In this document: one piece after another, positions 8,596-29,746 of the stretch
How the letters are laid out: each line of letters opens with the position of its first letter
Numbering within the stretch: position 1 is the first letter of the stretch
Assembly: GCA_036846405.1 (NCBI GenBank)
Contig: DAIUCA010000002.1
Span: 2,881 to 34,499 of the forward strand
Direction: 5' to 3'
Source of the DNA: Candidatus Competibacteraceae bacterium
Lineage (GTDB): Bacteria; Pseudomonadota; Gammaproteobacteria; Competibacterales; Competibacteraceae
DNA: 31,619 bases
The notes under the pieces: generated by a model
Databases searched by the model: none
What the model saw: the letters and a program-made list of their open reading frames with translations, nothing else
Told to the model about the DNA's origin: nothing
Made by a program: the position numbers and the translations under genes

Positions 8596-9294
8596 TCATG
8601 GATTTGTGGTGGATGGCACATCGGCAATCGCCACGGCCGGGGGCCGCGTCGCCGCTGTCTGTAGATAGCGATCAAGGGCGTTTTTCGCCGCAATCAGGGC
8701 AGCAAGTCCAAAAAAAGCCCCGGGCGGCAACACAGCGACCAAAAATCCGGGGTAATCCGCCCACTGAACCGTCCACGAGCGGGCGCCCTCGCCAAACACT
8801 AAATGCGCATCCGCCAGCAGGGTTCCGTGGCCCACGAGCTCCCGCAGACTGCCCAACACCACGAGCACCGCCGCAAAGCCCAAGGCCATCATGAGGCCGT
8901 CAAAGAGCGCCCGCCGCGCGTCGTGGCGCGACGCGAACGCCTCTGCCCGCCCGATAACGATGCAGTTGGTCACGATGAGCGGAATGAAAATGCCCAGAAT
9001 CTGGTACAGCTCGAAGAAGAACGCGCGGATCACGAGTTCCACCGCCGTCACACAGCCCGCAATGATCACCACAAACACGGCGATCCGAATCTCCGGCCGC
9101 AGATAACCCCGCACCAAGGCGATGACGCCGTTCGTTAGGGTGAGCACCAAAATGGTCGCTAGAGCCAAGCCAAAGGCATTAATGGCGTTGGTGGTCACCG
9201 CCAGCAGCGGACACAGCCCCAACAGTTGCACCAGCCCGGGGTTGTTTGCCCACAGGCCATTTTTGGCGATGTCGCCGTAACTCGGTTCGTTCAT
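8596..9294 (-). CDS. rnfE: Ion-translocating oxidoreductase complex subunit E (RnfE/RsxE)
   Basis: MNEPSYGDIAKNGLWANNPGLVQLLGLCPLLAVTTNAINAFGLALATILVLTLTNG... is classic RnfE. The start ATG overlaps the rnfG stop in ATGA. Confidence 0.85.
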   Translation of the reverse strand: MNEPSYGDIAKNGLWANNPGLVQLLGLCPLLAVTTNAINAFGLALATILVLTLTNGVIALVRGYLRPEIRIAVFVVIIAGCVTAVELVIRAFFFELYQILGIFIPLIVTNCIVIGRAEAFASRHDARRALFDGLMMALGFAAVLVVLGSLRELVGHGTLLADAHLVFGEGARSWTVQWADYPGFLVAVLPPGAFFGLAALIAAKNALDRYLQTAATRPPAVAIADVPSTTNP

Positions 9295-13596: not shown

Positions 13597-13789
13597 AACA
13601 ATTTCCCCAAAAATGGTTGCCCCGACAGGCGGGTGAATGCGGATGCGAAAACCTAGCAAATCACTCGGGTAAAAAGCCAATGCAGTGATGTCGCAAGCAT
13701 ATAACCCACACTCAGCCAGAACCTTGATTTACGGCATAAGACAAGGCGGTTTGATCTTTGGGGCTACACCGTAAAAATCTTTAATCAAA

Positions 13790-15133
13790 TCAATGGTGAT
13801 CGAGCTGTTTTTTGAACAAATGGATGCGCCAGGCGAGCAGCGCCACCACCAGGGGAATGGCGATGCCGGTCACCACGTCTGGATTGAGAGGCACGCCCAA
13901 TTTGCTCAAGGCTTTGGCGCCATAGCCCACTAAACCCACCAGGTAGTAGCTCAAAACCACCACCGACAGGCCCTCGACGGTTTCTTGCAGGCGTAATTGC
14001 AAGTCGGCTCGGCGATTCATGGAGGCCAACAGGGCTTGACTTTGCTGTTGCATCGAGACGTCCACGCGGGTTTGCAGCAGGGCGCTGGCGCGGGCGATGC
14101 GTTGGGAAAGCTGTCCCTGCCACTCGCTCATGGCCTCAATGGTGCGCATGGCTGGCGCCAGTCGCCGTTCCATAAACCCTTCCAGGGTTTGCAATCCCTC
14201 CAGCCGTTGTTCGCGGATTTCGCCAATGCGCTTGGTCACCAGGGCGTAGTAAGCCCGACTGGCCGCGAAACGGTAGGTATGACTCGCCACACTGTTCTCG
14301 ACAACGGCAGCCAATTGGGTCAATTCCGACAATAACGCCGTTTCGTCGATGATTTCTTCTGCTTGATGACTTTCATTACTCGTATTCATTTCCTTGTCGG
14401 CGACGGCATCCATGCGACCAATCAGGCTGGCGAGTTGTTTTTCCCATTTATCCAGCTGGGACGCCAGTTTCCTTGCGGGTATGAATCCCAACATGGCAAG
14501 GGAACGGTAACTTTCGATTTCGAGCAGGTGCTGAACCAACCGCCCGGCCTGGCGCGGCGTCAAGCCGTAATCGTGGATGAGTAGGCGATCAAAACCGTCG
14601 TTGTGAATCCGAAAATCGCTCCACACGCAGGCGGTGCCGTCGAGCACGCGGCTACCCGCCAGGTTCGAGGTACCAAACAACCGCTCAGTCTCTTGGGCGT
14701 TGGGCGGGCCTTTGTCGCTGGTTTCGATGATGACGTGGGTCGCCACGAGCACATCACCACTCAAACTTTGCAGCCAATCCGTGGGCACGAGGGCGATGGG
14801 CGGCGCCACAAACGGGTCATCGGGCTGGGTTTCGGTGCGCGAAAACGTGAAGGTGGAAAACTCGTTGTGGCGCTCCCACCGCAGGCGAATCGCGCCCAAA
14901 TCGGCAAACCAAAACGGGGCGTCATCCGTGGGTTCGGGGGCGTTGTAGCGACGGCACAGTTCCGCCACTTGACGACAATCCGCCAGAGTGCCGCCCGGCC
15001 CGGACAGCACGGCCAAATGGGACGCGCGCAGAGGCGAATGAACCTCTTCCGACGGGCGGGCGTGGAGTTCGCGGTCGAGGACGCGGCGCTGGGAATGTTC
15101 GCGGAGACCCGCCAGCAATGCAGGACGATTCAT
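13790..15133 (-). CDS. DUF3422/COG4949 membrane-anchored protein
   Basis: 447 aa. Large soluble N-terminal region with coiled-coil segments and C-terminal TM helices (LSVVVLSYYLVGLVGYGAKAL..GIAIPLVVALLAW), matching the DUF3422 family layout. Confidence 0.65.
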   Translation of the reverse strand: MNRPALLAGLREHSQRRVLDRELHARPSEEVHSPLRASHLAVLSGPGGTLADCRQVAELCRRYNAPEPTDDAPFWFADLGAIRLRWERHNEFSTFTFSRTETQPDDPFVAPPIALVPTDWLQSLSGDVLVATHVIIETSDKGPPNAQETERLFGTSNLAGSRVLDGTACVWSDFRIHNDGFDRLLIHDYGLTPRQAGRLVQHLLEIESYRSLAMLGFIPARKLASQLDKWEKQLASLIGRMDAVADKEMNTSNESHQAEEIIDETALLSELTQLAAVVENSVASHTYRFAASRAYYALVTKRIGEIREQRLEGLQTLEGFMERRLAPAMRTIEAMSEWQGQLSQRIARASALLQTRVDVSMQQQSQALLASMNRRADLQLRLQETVEGLSVVVLSYYLVGLVGYGAKALSKLGVPLNPDVVTGIAIPLVVALLAWRIHLFKKQLDHH

Positions 15134-24024: not shown

Positions 24025-27000
24025 ATGACTGCCCTCGATTCTGCGGCCGCTCTGTTTGCGACCGCGCTGAAACTTTCCGAAGACGACGCCGCGCATCTCG
24101 TCGCCACCGCGTCCCTGCGGCTCACCCCGCCGGGCACCGTCGTCATCCGCGAAGGCGATCAGGCGGAAGCGGCTTACATCGTGGCCCGTGGCCTGTTGCA
24201 GGTGCAGGTGCGGGACAGCGCCGGTCTACCGCGCGTCGTCGCCCGCCTAGAAGCTGGCACGCTGTTTGGCGAACAGGCCCTGTTGCCGGGCCGTTCCCAG
24301 CGCAACGCCACGGTCATCGCCGTGGAAGAGTCCCAGGTGTGGACGATTCCCGCCGCCGCCTTCCGCCAACTGCTCGGGCGTCAACCCCAGTTGGCGGCGC
24401 TGTTGGATGCGGAAGGTCGGCGCCAAGCCCTGGGACGTCTCGCGCGCCAGTCGAATTTGCTGTCGGCGCTCACGGATGCGTTGCCCACCCACGAAGGCTT
24501 AATCGTGCGCCACCTGCGGGATAACGAGCGGCTCTTTGCGGAAGGCGACCCCGCCGATGCCGCGTACGTGGTGCTGCGGGGGGTGTTGTTGGTGCAGCGC
24601 CCGAACGACCAGGGCCAGCCGACCACGCTCAGTCGCCTGGGCGCGGGCGAGTTAGTGGGCGAATTGGCGGTGTTAGAGAACCAAAGCCGCGCCGCGAGCG
24701 TGGTGGCGAGTGGCAGCGTCGAGGTGTTGGGGATTCCGGCCGAGGCGTTTCGCCAGGCCCTAGCCCAATTGCCCGATTTAGCCGCCCTCACCGAGACCTT
24801 AAAGGCGGTGTATCGCCTGCCCCAGCGGGGACTCGTGGTGCGCCACAGCGGTTATTGGGAAGGGGAACCCTGTGTGGTGTGCGCGTTTCGGCTCCCCGAC
24901 GACCGCCGCGCTGCCGCCCGCCGACTTCTGCGCCAGGCGGTCACCGATCTCAGCATCACCGACGCCGAACCCAGCCAAACGCTCCGCAGCCCCGACGGCC
25001 AGGTGGAACTGCGCCTGCATCGCCAGGTGATCGTCGGCATCACTGCCCCGACGGAATGGCCCGATTTGAGCGTCATGGCCGGTTGGCTGTTGGACGGTCG
25101 GCCCCTCGAACCCTGGCGGCGCATCGCCTTCGAGACCCGGGGCACCTGTTTACTCGCGCCGCCGCCGTCATTTGGGCGGGACGACGAGCGGGTATGCCAT
25201 TGCTTGGGCACCACCGTGGGCGCCGTGCGCGCCGCCATCAGCATGGGCGCCCACACGGCGGAAGCCGTGGGCCACGTGACCGGCGCTGGCACCGTGTGTA
25301 GCGGCTGCATGGGGCCCTTGGCCCTGTTGATTGGCCGCGAGGATTACACCCTCTGTCGGCTGTCCACCCGCTCCCTCGACGACCACCAGCTGTTGGTGAG
25401 CCTCGCCCCGTTGGGCGGCATGCTCACCCCCACCCAGGCCGGCCAGCAGGTGCAGGTGGAAGCCCTGTGCGACGGCGCGTGGGTCGCCCGACGCTATTGG
25501 GTGGTGAATCCACGGGCGGCGGATCGCTACGACATCGCCGTGACCCGCGAACAGGATGACCCGTTATCCCATTGGTTTTACCAAGCGCCCGAAGGCAGTT
25601 TGGTGCGGGTGTCGCCGCCCCTGGGGAAACCGATTGACCTGCAAAATGGCCGTCCCCTGGTGTATTTGGTGGGCGATGCGGGCGCGGTGGTGGCCATCGC
25701 GACGGTGCGCAGTCAGCCGCTGCGGCCCACCACGGTGATTTACAGCGCCGCCCTGGCCCGCGCGGCCTGGCTGCCGGAACTCAAGCAGCTGGCGTCGCTG
25801 CATTTCATCGAGCTGCATTTCCACGACAGCACCGAATACACCCTCACGCCCATCGAAATCGTCGGTCATCTCAGTCGCCAGCCCGATGCGGAGCTGGTGG
25901 TGTGCGGCCCGTCGGCGCTCACCGACACCGGTCTCCAAGCGGTCGCCCAGGTGCCATCGGTTCAAGTGCAGATCGTGCGCCTGGAAACCGCCAGCCAGCC
26001 GCTCACGGATCTGCCGCTGCCGCCCCTGCGCCCACTGCCCTGCCCAACCCTGCTGCCGGGGCCGTCGACTCCCAACCTGGTCACCGCCGTCGGTACGCCC
26101 AGGGAAGAAACCGAGGGGTTTTTACAGCGATTTTTCGTCGAAAACCGCGTGCCGACCGCGTTTAGCGCCCGTTGGGACGAGGTGCAACCCCAGCTTTTGA
26201 CGGAAAGTGGCTATCAACCCACCCCCGAAGAGCTGGCGTACGGGGTGCGTATCGCCTGGCGTCAAAGCCGCAACGCCTTTGAACGGCCCTTTTGGCCCGA
26301 TGTGGCCGTGCGCGACGTGCGCCATCTCCATCACCCGGACGACGTGGCCCACGCGGTGTTCACCCATTTGGAGCTGGCTTACAACGGCGGCGCCGTGCGG
26401 CCTCTGGTGACCCTGTTCCAGGCAGACCGGGCCAATCGTCCCGGCCCACGGCTCTGGAACCCCGCCCTCCCCCTGTTCAGCAGCCAACGCCATCCCCAAC
26501 AGGCGGCCTTTGTGGCGGCAATCACCAAATTGGGTTGGCACTCCAGCGGCGACCTCTACGAAGTGCTGCCGCTGGTGGTGGAATGCGCGGGCTTTGCGCC
26601 GCAGATTTACCCCGTTCCCCCGGAAAAGGCCCTGGCGGTGGCCCTGGTGCATCCAGAACACCTGTGGTTCAAGACCCTAAATTTGCGGTGGAACACCCTG
26701 ATGGCCGTGGCCGACCAGCCCCTATGGCTGGCGGGGCAGGGGGATCGCAGCCCGCTGGTGAGCGGCGTGCAGTTGAGTCGGGCGGTGGTGGCGTGGTTAC
26801 AGGAGGCGGAAGGGGAATCGCTGCTGCTGCGGATTGCCGGTTATCTGCGCCTCGACACCCAACGAGACGCCAGTTTGTGGCGCTTAAAAGCCATGACCAC
26901 CTTGGAAGAGGCCGTGTTGTGGTCCTTTGAACGGGCAGGCGTCACCGTGGTGGAAACCTACAGCGCGGCTCGGCGGTTTGCGGCCTTTGTGGCCGCAGAA

Positions 27001-27129
27001 ACTGCCGCCAATCGCCCCCTGTGCCATCGAGACCAGTTGCAATTGCCGCTCTTGGGTAGCTTGGGCCTCGCGTGGGATCAATGGCCGAATTACGCCTGGA
27101 GTCCTGCATTTACGGCGCCTGCCCCCTAG
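24025..27129 (+). CDS. Multidomain redox/signalling protein: 2x cNMP-binding (CAP_ED) + BFD-like [2Fe-2S] + FNR-like FAD/NAD(P) reductase + C-terminal NOS-oxygenase-like domain lacking the heme-thiolate Cys
   Basis: cNMP domains roughly aa 20-125 and 155-250 (GTLFGEQALL...RNATVIAVE, GELVGELAVL...RAASVVAS). BFD-like 4-Cys motif C391-x-C393...C425-x2-C428 (VCHCLGTTVGAVRAAISMG...TGAGTVCSGCMG). FNR-like module with RRYWVV (RxYS-type) and LVYLVGDAGAVVAIATV. The C-terminal ~340 aa align with NOSoxy blocks: AWRQSRNAFERPFW (vs AWRNSNRCIGRLFW), VRPLVTLF (vs IRPTITIF), KLGWHSSGDLYEVLPLVV (vs ELGWRGERTDFDLLPLIF), LWRLKAMTTLEEAVLWSFERAGVTVVETYSAARRF (vs [35 protein letters not shown]). AGGAG RBS 7 nt upstream. 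Confidence 0.8.
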   Translation: MTALDSAAALFATALKLSEDDAAHLVATASLRLTPPGTVVIREGDQAEAAYIVARGLLQVQVRDSAGLPRVVARLEAGTLFGEQALLPGRSQRNATVIAVEESQVWTIPAAAFRQLLGRQPQLAALLDAEGRRQALGRLARQSNLLSALTDALPTHEGLIVRHLRDNERLFAEGDPADAAYVVLRGVLLVQRPNDQGQPTTLSRLGAGELVGELAVLENQSRAASVVASGSVEVLGIPAEAFRQALAQLPDLAALTETLKAVYRLPQRGLVVRHSGYWEGEPCVVCAFRLPDDRRAAARRLLRQAVTDLSITDAEPSQTLRSPDGQVELRLHRQVIVGITAPTEWPDLSVMAGWLLDGRPLEPWRRIAFETRGTCLLAPPPSFGRDDERVCHCLGTTVGAVRAAISMGAHTAEAVGHVTGAGTVCSGCMGPLALLIGREDYTLCRLSTRSLDDHQLLVSLAPLGGMLTPTQAGQQVQVEALCDGAWVARRYWVVNPRAADRYDIAVTREQDDPLSHWFYQAPEGSLVRVSPPLGKPIDLQNGRPLVYLVGDAGAVVAIATVRSQPLRPTTVIYSAALARAAWLPELKQLASLHFIELHFHDSTEYTLTPIEIVGHLSRQPDAELVVCGPSALTDTGLQAVAQVPSVQVQIVRLETASQPLTDLPLPPLRPLPCPTLLPGPSTPNLVTAVGTPREETEGFLQRFFVENRVPTAFSARWDEVQPQLLTESGYQPTPEELAYGVRIAWRQSRNAFERPFWPDVAVRDVRHLHHPDDVAHAVFTHLELAYNGGAVRPLVTLFQADRANRPGPRLWNPALPLFSSQRHPQQAAFVAAITKLGWHSSGDLYEVLPLVVECAGFAPQIYPVPPEKALAVALVHPEHLWFKTLNLRWNTLMAVADQPLWLAGQGDRSPLVSGVQLSRAVVAWLQEAEGESLLLRIAGYLRLDTQRDASLWRLKAMTTLEEAVLWSFERAGVTVVETYSAARRFAAFVAAETAANRPLCHRDQLQLPLLGSLGLAWDQWPNYAWSPAFTAPAP

Positions 27130-27160
27130 CCGCTGTCGCCCGTTTTTGCGGCCTAACCCG

Positions 27161-27174
27161 TTGATCTCAATCAA
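27161..27174. promoter_or_regulatory. Perfect FNR/Anr/Dnr-type box TTGATCTCAATCAA (TTGAT-N4-ATCAA) upstream of the chaN-sco1-pcuAC gene set
   Basis: Exact palindromic consensus half-sites with 4-nt spacer, centred about 110 nt upstream of the ChaN-like ATG (27277) and 32 nt after the NOS-like gene stop. Confidence 0.5.
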
Positions 27175-27276
27175 AAAATCGCGGGGATGTCCACTCGGTA
27201 AATGGCGCTTCAATCGAAGCGTCATTTGCGTTTTGGACGGTCGAACGAGGGCGTTGCCCATTAACTCCACCCAGGA

Positions 27277-28455
27277 ATGCCGCTGCCCATGCGCCGATTG
27301 ACTGTTCTTGCCGTTCACCTGCTGTGTTTGTTGCCGCTGCTGTTTGGGGTTGCCCACGCCCAAAGCTGTGCCACCAGTGCGGGGCGTTGGTTTGATCCCA
27401 CGCTGCAAATTCCGCGAGACGCCGCGCCGTTGTTCACCGCCATGGCGCGCCGCGCCGTGGTGCTGCTGGGCGAACAACACGACCAGGCGAGCCACCACCG
27501 ATGGCAGCTCCACACCCTCGCCGGGCTGTACGCCCACCAGCCGAACCTGGTCATTGGCCTAGAAATGCTGCCCCGCAGCGTGCAGCCGGTGCTGGATCGC
27601 TTCAGCCGTGGCGAATTGGATGAAGTGGCGTTTTTGGCCGAAAGCCGCTGGCAAGAGCATTGGGGCTTCGATACGGAGCTGTATTTGCCGATTTTGCGCT
27701 TTGCCCAAATGCATCGCTTGCCCCTAGTCGCCCTCAACGTGGATCGCGATTTGATTAGCGAAGTCGCCCGCGTGGGCTGGGCCAAGGTGCCGATGGAACG
27801 GCGGGAAGGGCTTGGCGATCTGCTGCCGGCCACCCCTGCCTATCGCGCCGAATTGGCCCAGGTGTTTGGCCACAAAAATCCCGATCATCAACAAGACGAG
27901 GCGGCGTTTGATCGCTTTGTCGAAGCGCAACTCACCTGGGATCGGGCCTTTGCCGAGGGATTGATTCAGGCCCGTCGTGCCCACAACAACGCCCTCGCCG
28001 TGGGGTTGGTGGGCCGCTTCCACGCCCAATTTGGTCACGGCGTTGGCCAACAGCTTTTAGATTTGGGCGTGTTAGACGGCGCGACCCTGTTGCCGGTCCC
28101 GGTGAGCGACTGCGAACAGGTGGTGCCGGGTCTGGCCGATGCGGTGTTTTTATTAGATGACCACCAAGTGCTCGCCGAAGCCGACGGCGAACCGCTGCGC
28201 TTGGGGGTACAGGTCGCGGACGGCGCCGACGGCGTGTTAGTGCAAACCGTGGTGAGCGACAGTGTGGCCGCCGCCGCCGGCCTGCAAACCGACGATGTGA
28301 TCGCCCAAGCGGCGGGCCTCGACATTCGACAAGCCACAGAATTGCAGGCGCTGGTACGGCGCCAAGCCCCGGGCACCTGGCTACCGCTCACCGTCAAACG
28401 GCGCGGCCAGGTGCTGGATTTAGTGGCTAAATTCGCCGCCAAACCCCTGCCCTAA
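27277..28455 (+). CDS. ChaN-family (DUF399/Tiki-like) haem-binding periplasmic protein with C-terminal PDZ domain
   Basis: Signal peptide MPLPMRRLTVLAVHLLCLLPLLFGVAHA. ChaN hallmark VVLLGEQHD plus downstream LVALNVDRDLI. The C-terminal ~90 aa (GVQVADGADGVLVQTVVSDSVAAAAGLQTDDVIAQAAGLDIRQATELQALVRRQAPGTWLPLTVKRRG) form a PDZ domain. Confidence 0.65.
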   Translation: MPLPMRRLTVLAVHLLCLLPLLFGVAHAQSCATSAGRWFDPTLQIPRDAAPLFTAMARRAVVLLGEQHDQASHHRWQLHTLAGLYAHQPNLVIGLEMLPRSVQPVLDRFSRGELDEVAFLAESRWQEHWGFDTELYLPILRFAQMHRLPLVALNVDRDLISEVARVGWAKVPMERREGLGDLLPATPAYRAELAQVFGHKNPDHQQDEAAFDRFVEAQLTWDRAFAEGLIQARRAHNNALAVGLVGRFHAQFGHGVGQQLLDLGVLDGATLLPVPVSDCEQVVPGLADAVFLLDDHQVLAEADGEPLRLGVQVADGADGVLVQTVVSDSVAAAAGLQTDDVIAQAAGLDIRQATELQALVRRQAPGTWLPLTVKRRGQVLDLVAKFAAKPLP

Positions 28456-28478: not shown

Positions 28479-29120
28479 ATGACGCAACGACTTGTCTTGC
28501 TCTCGTTCACCGCCTTGCTGCTCGGCGTGGCGGTGGCGCTATTTCTGCCGCGCCCCACGGCCCCAGACATCGGCGGTTTTATTCTGCAACCGCCTAAACC
28601 GCTCCCCGAGTTTGTCTTAACCGGCGACGACGGCCAGCCGTTCACTCCCGATAGCCTGCGGGGCCAATGGCAATTTCTGTTCTTTGGCTACACCTTCTGT
28701 CCGGACATCTGCCCCATGGCCCTGCTGGAGTTCTCCAAAGTGCAAAAAGCCTTGGCTGAACAAGGGGTTACCAATGTGGGGTTTCGGTTTATTTCCGTCG
28801 ATCCCGCCCGCGATACCCCGGCGCGGCTCCACGAATTTGTCGGGTATTTCAATCCCACCTTCGCGGCGGCGACGGGCGATCGGGCAGAAATCGACCGTTT
28901 AGCCCAATCGGTGGGCGCGGTGTATCGAATTAACGAACCCGAACCGGGCAAGAGTTATTACCTGGTGGATCACTCGGCGACGGTGATGATTCTGAACCCC
29001 GAGGGCCAACTGGCCGCCGTCATGTCGCCGCCTCACGACCCGCCCACGGTGACGAAGGATTTCATGGCGCTTCGACGGTTTTACGAAGCCTCCCAAGGAT
29101 TCTTTGCCCAAGGGCGGTAA
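28479..29120 (+). CDS. SCO1/SenC family copper chaperone (thioredoxin fold)
   Basis: N-terminal membrane anchor; CxxxC copper-binding motif in FFGYTFCPDICPMAL; conserved His in YYLVDHSATVMILNPEG. Confidence 0.85.
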   Translation: MTQRLVLLSFTALLLGVAVALFLPRPTAPDIGGFILQPPKPLPEFVLTGDDGQPFTPDSLRGQWQFLFFGYTFCPDICPMALLEFSKVQKALAEQGVTNVGFRFISVDPARDTPARLHEFVGYFNPTFAAATGDRAEIDRLAQSVGAVYRINEPEPGKSYYLVDHSATVMILNPEGQLAAVMSPPHDPPTVTKDFMALRRFYEASQGFFAQGR

Positions 29121-29230: not shown

Positions 29231-29746
29231 ATGCGCATTTCGCAATTTTTTGCGCTTCTGTTGCTTGCACCCCTCGCGTTAGCGCAAGCCCACGAAGGCC
29301 ACGATCACAGCCATGACCATGACCACGATCACAGTCACGACCAGGCGGCGGTGAACGCGCCGATTACGGTGGAGAATGCGTGGGCGCGGGAGACGCCGCC
29401 GGGCGGCAAGGTCAGCGCGGCGTACATGACGATCACCGGATTGGCCGCAGATCGCCTGGTAAAAGCGAGCGGCGAGGTGGCACAAACCATCGAGCTACAT
29501 ACCCATCTGCTCGAGGATGGCGTCATGAAAATGCGGGAAATCAGCGGCATCGACGTGAACCCCGGCGAACCGGCGGTGCTGCGTCCCGGTGGGCTGCACA
29601 TCATGCTCATCGACCTGGTGGAACCGCTGAAAACCGACGATTCCTTCTTCTTAACCCTGCATTTCGAGAAGGCCGGCGAGTTGACCTTTGAGATTCCCGT
29701 GAAGCGCGGCCCGTCCGCAGCGATGCCGATGCCGCACGCCCATTAG
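29231..29746 (+). CDS. PCu(A)C periplasmic copper chaperone (DUF461) with His/Asp-rich N-terminal extension
   Basis: Signal peptide; HEGHDHSHDHDHDHSHD metal-binding repeat; PCuAC core (VENAWARETPPGGKVSAAYMTITG...HIMLIDL) and C-terminal MPMPHAH Met/His copper motif. Confidence 0.85.
   Translation: MRISQFFALLLLAPLALAQAHEGHDHSHDHDHDHSHDQAAVNAPITVENAWARETPPGGKVSAAYMTITGLAADRLVKASGEVAQTIELHTHLLEDGVMKMREISGIDVNPGEPAVLRPGGLHIMLIDLVEPLKTDDSFFLTLHFEKAGELTFEIPVKRGPSAAMPMPHAH

Follow-up and report, generated by a model that had tools for sequence, protein, structure and literature searches.

A candidate FNR-type operator in the gap between a NOS-like gene and a chaN-senC-pcuAC cluster of an uncultured gammaproteobacterium

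What does an exact FNR-family palindrome do in a short gap between a NOS-like gene and a set of genes for haem- and copper-handling proteins? The question was raised by a first-pass annotation of the window—by which we mean the whole 31,619-bp stretch of DNA that was analysed—which had picked out the palindrome, proposed that it serves class II activation of the downstream chaN-like operon, and found its pairing with the cNMP/CRP-like domains of the adjacent protein intriguing. Our preferred reading is that the box is an operator for a regulator of the FNR/Anr/Dnr/FixK type, which would activate chaN-senC-pcuAC in class II fashion under low oxygen or NO; going by the DNA sequence, we consider the case for and against this reading to be evenly balanced. 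The features on which the argument turns are collected in Table 1.

Table 1. Features of the region around the box, with coordinates given as positions in the window.
Feature	Position	Strand	Basis or remarks
NOS-like neighbour, 1034 aa	24025..27129	+	two cNMP-binding domains, BFD-like [2Fe-2S] domain, degenerate reductase-like region, NOS-oxygenase-like domain
FNR-family consensus box TTGATCTCAATCAA	27161..27174	.	perfect palindrome; sole exact site; centre between 27167 and 27168
Candidate weak -10 region GGTAAATG	27197..27204	+	hexamer scores on both sides of the box; start inferred
Hairpin, 14-bp stem and 4-nt loop (GUAAAUGGCGCUUC AAUC GAAGCGUCAUUUGC)	27198..27229	+	folding compared with shuffles
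Post-hairpin tail GTTTTGG	27230..27236	+	four T, below the terminator-scan rule (5 T in 8)
AGGA, likely Shine-Dalgarno sequence for ATG 27289	27273..27276	+	12 nt upstream of ATG 27289; directly abuts ATG 27277
ChaN-like (Cofac_haem_bdg, Tiki superfamily) + PDZ, N-terminal signal peptide	27289..28455 (alternative start 27277)	+	PF04187 2e-58, PDZ_2 3e-11
SCO1/SenC copper chaperone	28479..29120	+	PF02630 1e-38; 23 bp after chaN
PCuAC copper chaperone	29231..29746	+	PF04314 1.4e-35; 110 bp after senC

The box matches all ten specified positions of TTGAT-N4-ATCAA, and both the sequence and the coordinates reported for it earlier are correct. It also fits TTGA-N6-TCAA; compared by inspection with the CRP core, TGTGA-N6-TCACA, it shows no fit. 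The palindrome runs directly into an A-run (27173-27179), the first two bases of which are the last two of the box. A scan of both strands found one exact copy of TTGAT-N4-ATCAA in the window, and the earlier statement that the site is the only one of its kind thus holds for exact matches.

How rare is such a site? Shuffles of the window that preserve dinucleotide composition contain a mean of 0.03 exact boxes, with at least one in 3 of 100 shuffles, and a first-order Markov calculation gives 0.022 per window. If one mismatch is allowed, the window holds three sites against 0.63 expected—a count that 4 of 100 shuffles reach, and which is mildly above chance. The two that carry a mismatch, at 8662 and 20670, both lie within coding sequence, and their number is close to what chance would give. 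The first-pass annotation had judged a chance occurrence very unlikely in a genome of 62% GC; the measured G+C content of the window is 59.5%. The statistical case is weaker than it appears because the annotation was free to match any of many known motifs, and extrapolation at ~0.02 per 31.6 kb yields two to four exact boxes by chance in a 4-Mb genome, few of them non-coding.

Both points lend weight to the rival explanation that the box is a palindrome by chance and plays no part in regulation, the chaN cluster being read through from the NOS-like gene or transcribed from an unrecognised promoter. The same can be said of the experience with E. coli, in which good FNR-like sites often prove silent: of 187 predicted sites with high scores, 124 were unbound in vivo (PMC3688515). 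Chance sites would, however, be expected mainly in coding DNA, which makes up ~90% of the window, whereas the box is non-coding and occupies a short gap at a workable distance and orientation. We regard this explanation as somewhat unlikely, though one to be taken seriously.

Several weaker sites in the window deserve a brief record. The one-mismatch box at 8662-8675 (TTGATCGCTATCTA, - strand) falls within the last codons of rnfE and is centred 90 nt upstream of the start of an Fe/Mn superoxide dismutase gene (ATG 8579, - strand), which begins 17 nt after the rnfE stop codon; this site is probably due to chance, since there is no -10-like hexamer at class II spacing. The window has 16 sites within two mismatches of TTGAT-N4-ATCAA (8.3 +/- 2.7 expected), a count that 0 of 100 shuffles reach; the excess may be an effect of codon usage, since most of these sites are in coding sequence. 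One of them, TTTAATCAAATCAA at 13780-13793, precedes the - strand start of rnfA by ~100 bp. The form TTGA-N6-TCAA occurs twice (0.44 expected), its second copy, 22849-22862, being just within the Band_7 gene. Finally, a perfect palindrome, TTGTT-TTAG-AACAA, is found at 23998-24011, 14-27 nt ahead of the NOS-like start codon—it equals the FNR consensus with one symmetric change, and overlaps the T-run of a terminator-like hairpin, GGCGAGTTGTCGCC (23983-23996), 3' of the Band_7 gene.

The gap that holds the box measures 147 bp, as had been noted, from the end of the NOS-like stop codon at 27129 to the first ATG at 27277, and 159 bp to the start annotated by NCBI; in a 99.7%-identical MAG this is the second ATG, 27289, which gives a 388-aa product. 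Read from the stop codon, the gap consists of 31 nt, the box, 23 nt, a hairpin, the GTTTTGG tail, ~36 nt, the AGGA and the ATG. The end of the box and the first possible ChaN-PDZ start codon are 102 nt apart.

Only on its + side does the box have A/T-rich hexamers at class II spacing. These are GGTAAA, GTAAAT and TAAATG, which overlap in GGTAAATG, their first bases 22-24 bp beyond the box; in each, three of the six positions agree with TATAAT, and none has both A2 and T6. At the mirror position on the - side the sequence is GC-rich and matches at 0-2 of 6. Taking the hexamers as a guide to the -10 element, transcription would start at ~27209-27211, and the centre of the box would then lie at -41.5 to -43.5. 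The class II reading is thus geometrically compatible with the sequence, given a weak -10 and a start placed by means of it. The search for other promoters gave nothing stronger: no sigma-70-like promoter passes a consensus scan of 26900-27500, no -10-like hexamer was seen by eye at class I spacings (-61.5 to -92.5), inspection found no sigma-54 promoter, and neither the scan nor inspection turned up another convincing promoter between the hairpin and the start codon. The weakness of the -10 candidate and the lack of a scan-passing promoter are points in favour of a chance palindrome.

The placement suggested here is the usual one for known class II sites. Among the FNR-activated promoters of E. 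coli with a mapped start, 19 of 23 carry the site at -41.5 +/- 4 (PMC3688515). The class II FNR promoters of that species, narG, dmsA, nirB and others, share with the window box the same consensus, TTGATnnnnATCAA, and its possible centre at about -41.5 to -43.5 and absence of a -35 hexamer, commonly missing where the activator sits at that position, also resemble them (PMC3688515), with the difference that the start is here inferred from a -10-like hexamer. Two further features set the window site apart from those promoters: its -10 is weaker than the usual TAnnnT, and its predicted start falls inside the terminator-like hairpin of the upstream gene.

This hairpin, which the first-pass annotation does not mention, has a dG of -21.2 kcal/mol on the + strand (z -6.3), and 0 of 200 shuffles fold equally well. 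On the - strand the dG is just -12.1; the structure is specific to + strand RNA because two G.U pairs are lost on the other. It begins 69 nt after the NOS-like stop codon. Clear terminators elsewhere in the window, at 31104-31083 (-) and 19261-19283 (+), have longer T-runs than its tail, and no Rfam family matched the hairpin or the sequence of the gap. We interpret the hairpin as probably the intrinsic terminator of the NOS-like gene.

Taken together, box and hairpin allow the preferred operator reading to be stated as a sequence of steps. A dimer of the CRP/FNR family—an O2-sensing FNR/Anr, an NO-sensing Dnr/NNR, or a protein of the FixK type—would bind TTGAT-N4-ATCAA and activate the weak promoter in class II fashion, with the -10 in GGTAAAT (27197-27203). 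The start would fall among the final bases of the hairpin's 5' arm, and the terminator of the NOS-like gene would thereby be bypassed; because they begin within the 5' arm, transcripts from the box promoter would be unable to form the hairpin, and could reach chaN-PDZ, senC and pcuAC. On folding, RNA from 27209 has no significant structure (z +0.58), and read-through RNA forms the -21.2 kcal/mol hairpin. Under low oxygen or denitrifying conditions the outcome would be a larger supply of periplasmic haem- and copper-handling factors for haem-copper oxidases, such as cbb3, or for N2O reductase. A bolder version of the idea can be put forward, in which box and hairpin form a compact switch: an O2/NO-responsive activator of the FNR/Dnr type would initiate transcription within the terminator of a gene for a catalytically dead, cNMP-binding NOS-like sensor; expression of the periplasmic haem and copper chaperones would thereby be coupled to a module that senses redox state and cyclic nucleotides, and SenC and PCuAC would join an FNR-family regulon. 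We offer this version as a speculation that is very unlikely to hold in full.

The box falls in untranslated sequence at the 3' end of the NOS-like gene, with the stop codon on one side and the hairpin on the other, and this location also suits a different role for a real FNR-family site. Read-through from the NOS-like gene might be repressed or blocked there, or termination modulated at the hairpin, which begins 23 nt further on. Where FNR represses, its sites vary in position (PMC3688515), which would accommodate such a role. However, class II spacing to an A/T-rich hexamer is the simpler account, and the consensus scan found no promoter overlapping the box that could be repressed. We are aware of no case in which FNR acts at a terminator, which counts against the variant that involves termination, and on balance we consider an alternative role of this kind rather improbable.

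Two cNMP_binding domains in the neighbouring protein are of the kind that forms the effector domain of CRP/FNR proteins, and the NOS-like gene adjoins chaN in the species that carries the box—observations that could be taken to mean that the box is the target of this very protein, acting as a CRP-like factor. We find that explanation highly improbable. No HTH_Crp or other DNA-binding domain is detectable in its linker regions (residues 240-400 and 431-700), even at E <= 1. The cNMP domains are instead followed by [2Fe-2S], reductase-like and NOS-like domains, and a 34%-identical homologue over the first ~670 residues has a P450 in place of the NOS domain, with RPYTLS and GIGVTP motifs intact; for both reasons the protein looks like an enzyme-type scaffold. 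In a sister species, moreover, the NOS-like gene and the chaN cluster are on different contigs and have other neighbours. With no HTH in the neighbour and no conservation of the NOS-like/chaN adjacency, the suggested pairing is not borne out, and the NOS-like gene probably lies outside the regulatory unit of the box.

The NOS-like protein itself appears to have lost its enzymatic function. The haem-thiolate Cys is replaced by Ala in the NOS-like domain (AWRQSRNAFERPFW, compared with AWRHSNRCIGRLFW of Geobacillus NOS) and the substrate-binding Glu of GWYMGTEI is altered (GVQLSRAV); both of these catalytic-residue changes are also present in a 78%-identical orthologue. In the reductase-like region the FAD/NAD(P)H motifs have degenerated (RRYWVV, GDAGAVV); the protein retains the four BFD [2Fe-2S] cysteines and both cNMP domains. 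The degenerate motifs and the retained elements alike are conserved in that orthologue, the sole one found. The pattern points to an enzyme-derived cNMP-binding protein that is probably catalytically dead and probably does not produce NO. The cNMP/[2Fe-2S]/reductase-like/NOS-like architecture occurs in two species only among 5.8 billion proteins, in both of which a Band_7 gene precedes the NOS-like gene, and a literature search for cNMP-NOS fusions found nothing relevant. The fusion next door, rare and shorn of its catalytic residues, is a more unusual object than the box.

Is the box conserved? In a second MAG of the same species, GCA_964530395.1, the box and the gap are identical, which is uninformative because the two are 99.7% identical. 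The lineage is sparsely sampled: a search of 5.8 billion proteins gave ChaN a single relative at more than 53% identity (72%) and the NOS-like protein likewise one, at 78%. Homologues of ProRS, which assign the organism to the Gammaproteobacteria, comprise one relative at 82% identity, with the next matches at ~65%; the best match that bears a name is Candidatus Competibacterales, at 64%. The one informative relative, which makes for a weak test of conservation, is the sister species, in which identities are 72% for ChaN, 66% for SenC, 78% for PCuAC and 78% for the NOS-like protein; its G+C content, ~49-52%, is ~8-11 points below that of the window, despite proteins that are 66-82% identical. 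The order of chaN, senC and pcuAC is kept there. The 105-bp AT-rich gap upstream of the sister chaN (L002/L003) has no box, and borders a divergently transcribed gene of unknown function. The sister Band_7/NOS-like pair is located on a separate contig, where it precedes a convergent peptidase gene and a terminator hairpin unlike that of the window. For the record, the sister intervals that were compared with window 27130-27288 are L002 3982-4086 and L084 13100-13170, and the two blocks found on different contigs are Band_7/NOS-like and chaN-senC-pcuAC-DUF1499.

With two blocks on different contigs in the sister species, and a gap there without a box, the window box sits at a synteny junction and is specific to one species. 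A perfect inverted repeat where two blocks meet that show no linkage in the sister species could also be an RNA or DNA structure rather than an operator, whether one that terminates transcription, a repeat element, or a site of recombination at the breakpoint in synteny. As a stem, however, the palindrome offers 5 bp of A/T pairs worth just -1.4 kcal/mol, and 18 of 200 shuffles fold equally well; the intergenic sequence has no other copy in the window or in any fetched locus, and no Rfam match. A + strand terminator is excluded because an A-run, not a T-run, follows the palindrome. A structural role of this sort is, in our estimation, highly improbable.

The comparison was extended to more distant loci with two sets. 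For ChaN, a genome scan with a ChaN alignment gave 80 ChaN-PDZ loci at 42-52% identity; the 350 bp upstream of chaN contain no exact box in any of them, and two-mismatch sites occur at background frequency. These loci are poor comparators; tblastn found no senC or pcuAC beside any of the 80. For SenC, a metagenome scan with the first query yielded no loci, and restriction of the query to the conserved core yielded 80, at 36-50% identity and some with pcuAC. None of the 80 SenC loci has a non-coding, promoter-proximal box that is exact or within one mismatch. Four candidate boxes (L143, L119, L094 and L099) were rejected; they lie within coding sequence, of an SCO-like gene, a TonB-dependent receptor gene and ctaB. 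The lack of a promoter-proximal box in all 160 distant loci indicates that control by an FNR box is not general for chaN/senC loci, and its absence from both these loci and the sole related species favours the chance explanation.

The sister species does hold an exact box of its own. This second copy, TTGATCGAAATCAA, is at L002 69-82 (GCA_964613675.1, CAZTIH010000022.1), at the end of a contig and 59 nt upstream of a called gene of the phage-integrase family, and an open frame that runs off the contig end might cover it. Its occurrence in only 48 kb of sister-species sequence argues against the chance explanation. Over 79.5 kb of non-redundant sequence from the lineage there are two exact boxes against 0.106 expected (Poisson P = 0.005), which suggests that the lineage uses the TTGAT-N4-ATCAA motif. 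Proteobacteria that possess an FNR regulon carry several promoter sites that equal the consensus or come near it. On the contigs examined—the 34.5-kb contig that contains the window, the 16.4-kb contig of the second MAG, and three contigs of the sister species—no protein with an HTH_Crp domain is encoded.

The proposal of class II activation of the chaN-like operon therefore meets with mixed evidence. For it are the consensus match, the non-coding position, and the -10-like element present on the + side alone; against it are a -10 that matches at 3 of 6, the lack of a promoter that passes the scan, the absence of the box from the sister species and the 160 distant loci, and the intervening hairpin. 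We nonetheless favour an operator, because few boxes are expected by chance and those mostly in coding sequence, and because of the position of the box, the one-sidedness of the -10-like element, the second box in the lineage, and the fit with what is known of FNR/FixK physiology. The site is plausibly an ordinary, species-specific operator of the FNR type.

What would such an operator control? The ChaN-PDZ gene is the first downstream of the box, and chaN, senC and pcuAC are co-directional on the + strand. SenC and PCuAC supply haem-copper oxidases and N2O reductase with copper, and the senC and pcuAC genes of studied species respond to copper supply. The genes for cbb3 oxidase and its copper supply (ccoNOQP/ccoGHIS) are under FNR/FixK control. 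The same logic is seen in the control of fixNOQP-fixGHIS by FixK/FnrN in rhizobia and Paracoccus, in which low-oxygen regulators switch on copper delivery for high-affinity oxidases. In Paracoccus, FNR boxes are found in the ccoN and ccoG promoters; senC and pcuAC in studied species are reported to respond to zinc supply rather than to FNR proteins (PMC5387054). A search of the literature found no report of control of senC or pcuAC by FNR/FixK, or of an FNR box before these genes.

Other relatives of the FNR system offer further points of likeness. The Anr/Dnr boxes of Pseudomonas and the FnrL/Dnr boxes of Dinoroseobacter shibae have the same palindrome, to which O2- and NO-sensing paralogues bind interchangeably. 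In D. shibae, a TTGAT-N4-ATCAA box that precedes the napD start codon by 96.5 bp is part of the napF transcript (PMC5398030); the window box, placed just after a co-directional gene, has its centre 109.5 or 121.5 bp upstream of the two candidate starts. Unlike those of the Anr/Dnr/FnrL systems, the targets here would be copper and haem chaperones, and not nap, nir, nor or nos. So far as sequence and possible geometry can show, the window box cannot be told apart from class II FNR/Anr/Dnr sites.

If the site is real, an uncultured, deep-branching gammaproteobacterium would raise its periplasmic ChaN-PDZ, SenC and PCuAC under low oxygen or NO. That would extend FNR-type regulons, already known to control the cbb3 oxidase and its CcoI/FixI copper supply, in a sensible and apparently unreported direction. 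The target genes would be mildly new; the element is of a thoroughly known kind—one more predicted operator of a type that is very well understood, apparently confined to one species, and touching on no open question.

The remainder of the window encodes rnfABCDGE, the Fe/Mn superoxide dismutase, metG, mrp/apbC, a MazE/PemK pair, dcd, proS, the Band_7 gene and the end of groEL; no denitrification genes are present in the window. The MazE/PrlF-type antitoxin and PemK-type toxin pair, at 19335-19923 (+), lies between mrp/apbC and dcd, and is found at the same place in the sister species (L087). Between the divergent proS and Band_7 genes, with the Band_7 start taken from the NCBI call in the sister MAG, ~520 bp (22278-22796) are apparently non-coding; the longest open reading frame in this interval would lengthen Band_7 by 178 codons, from a TTG.
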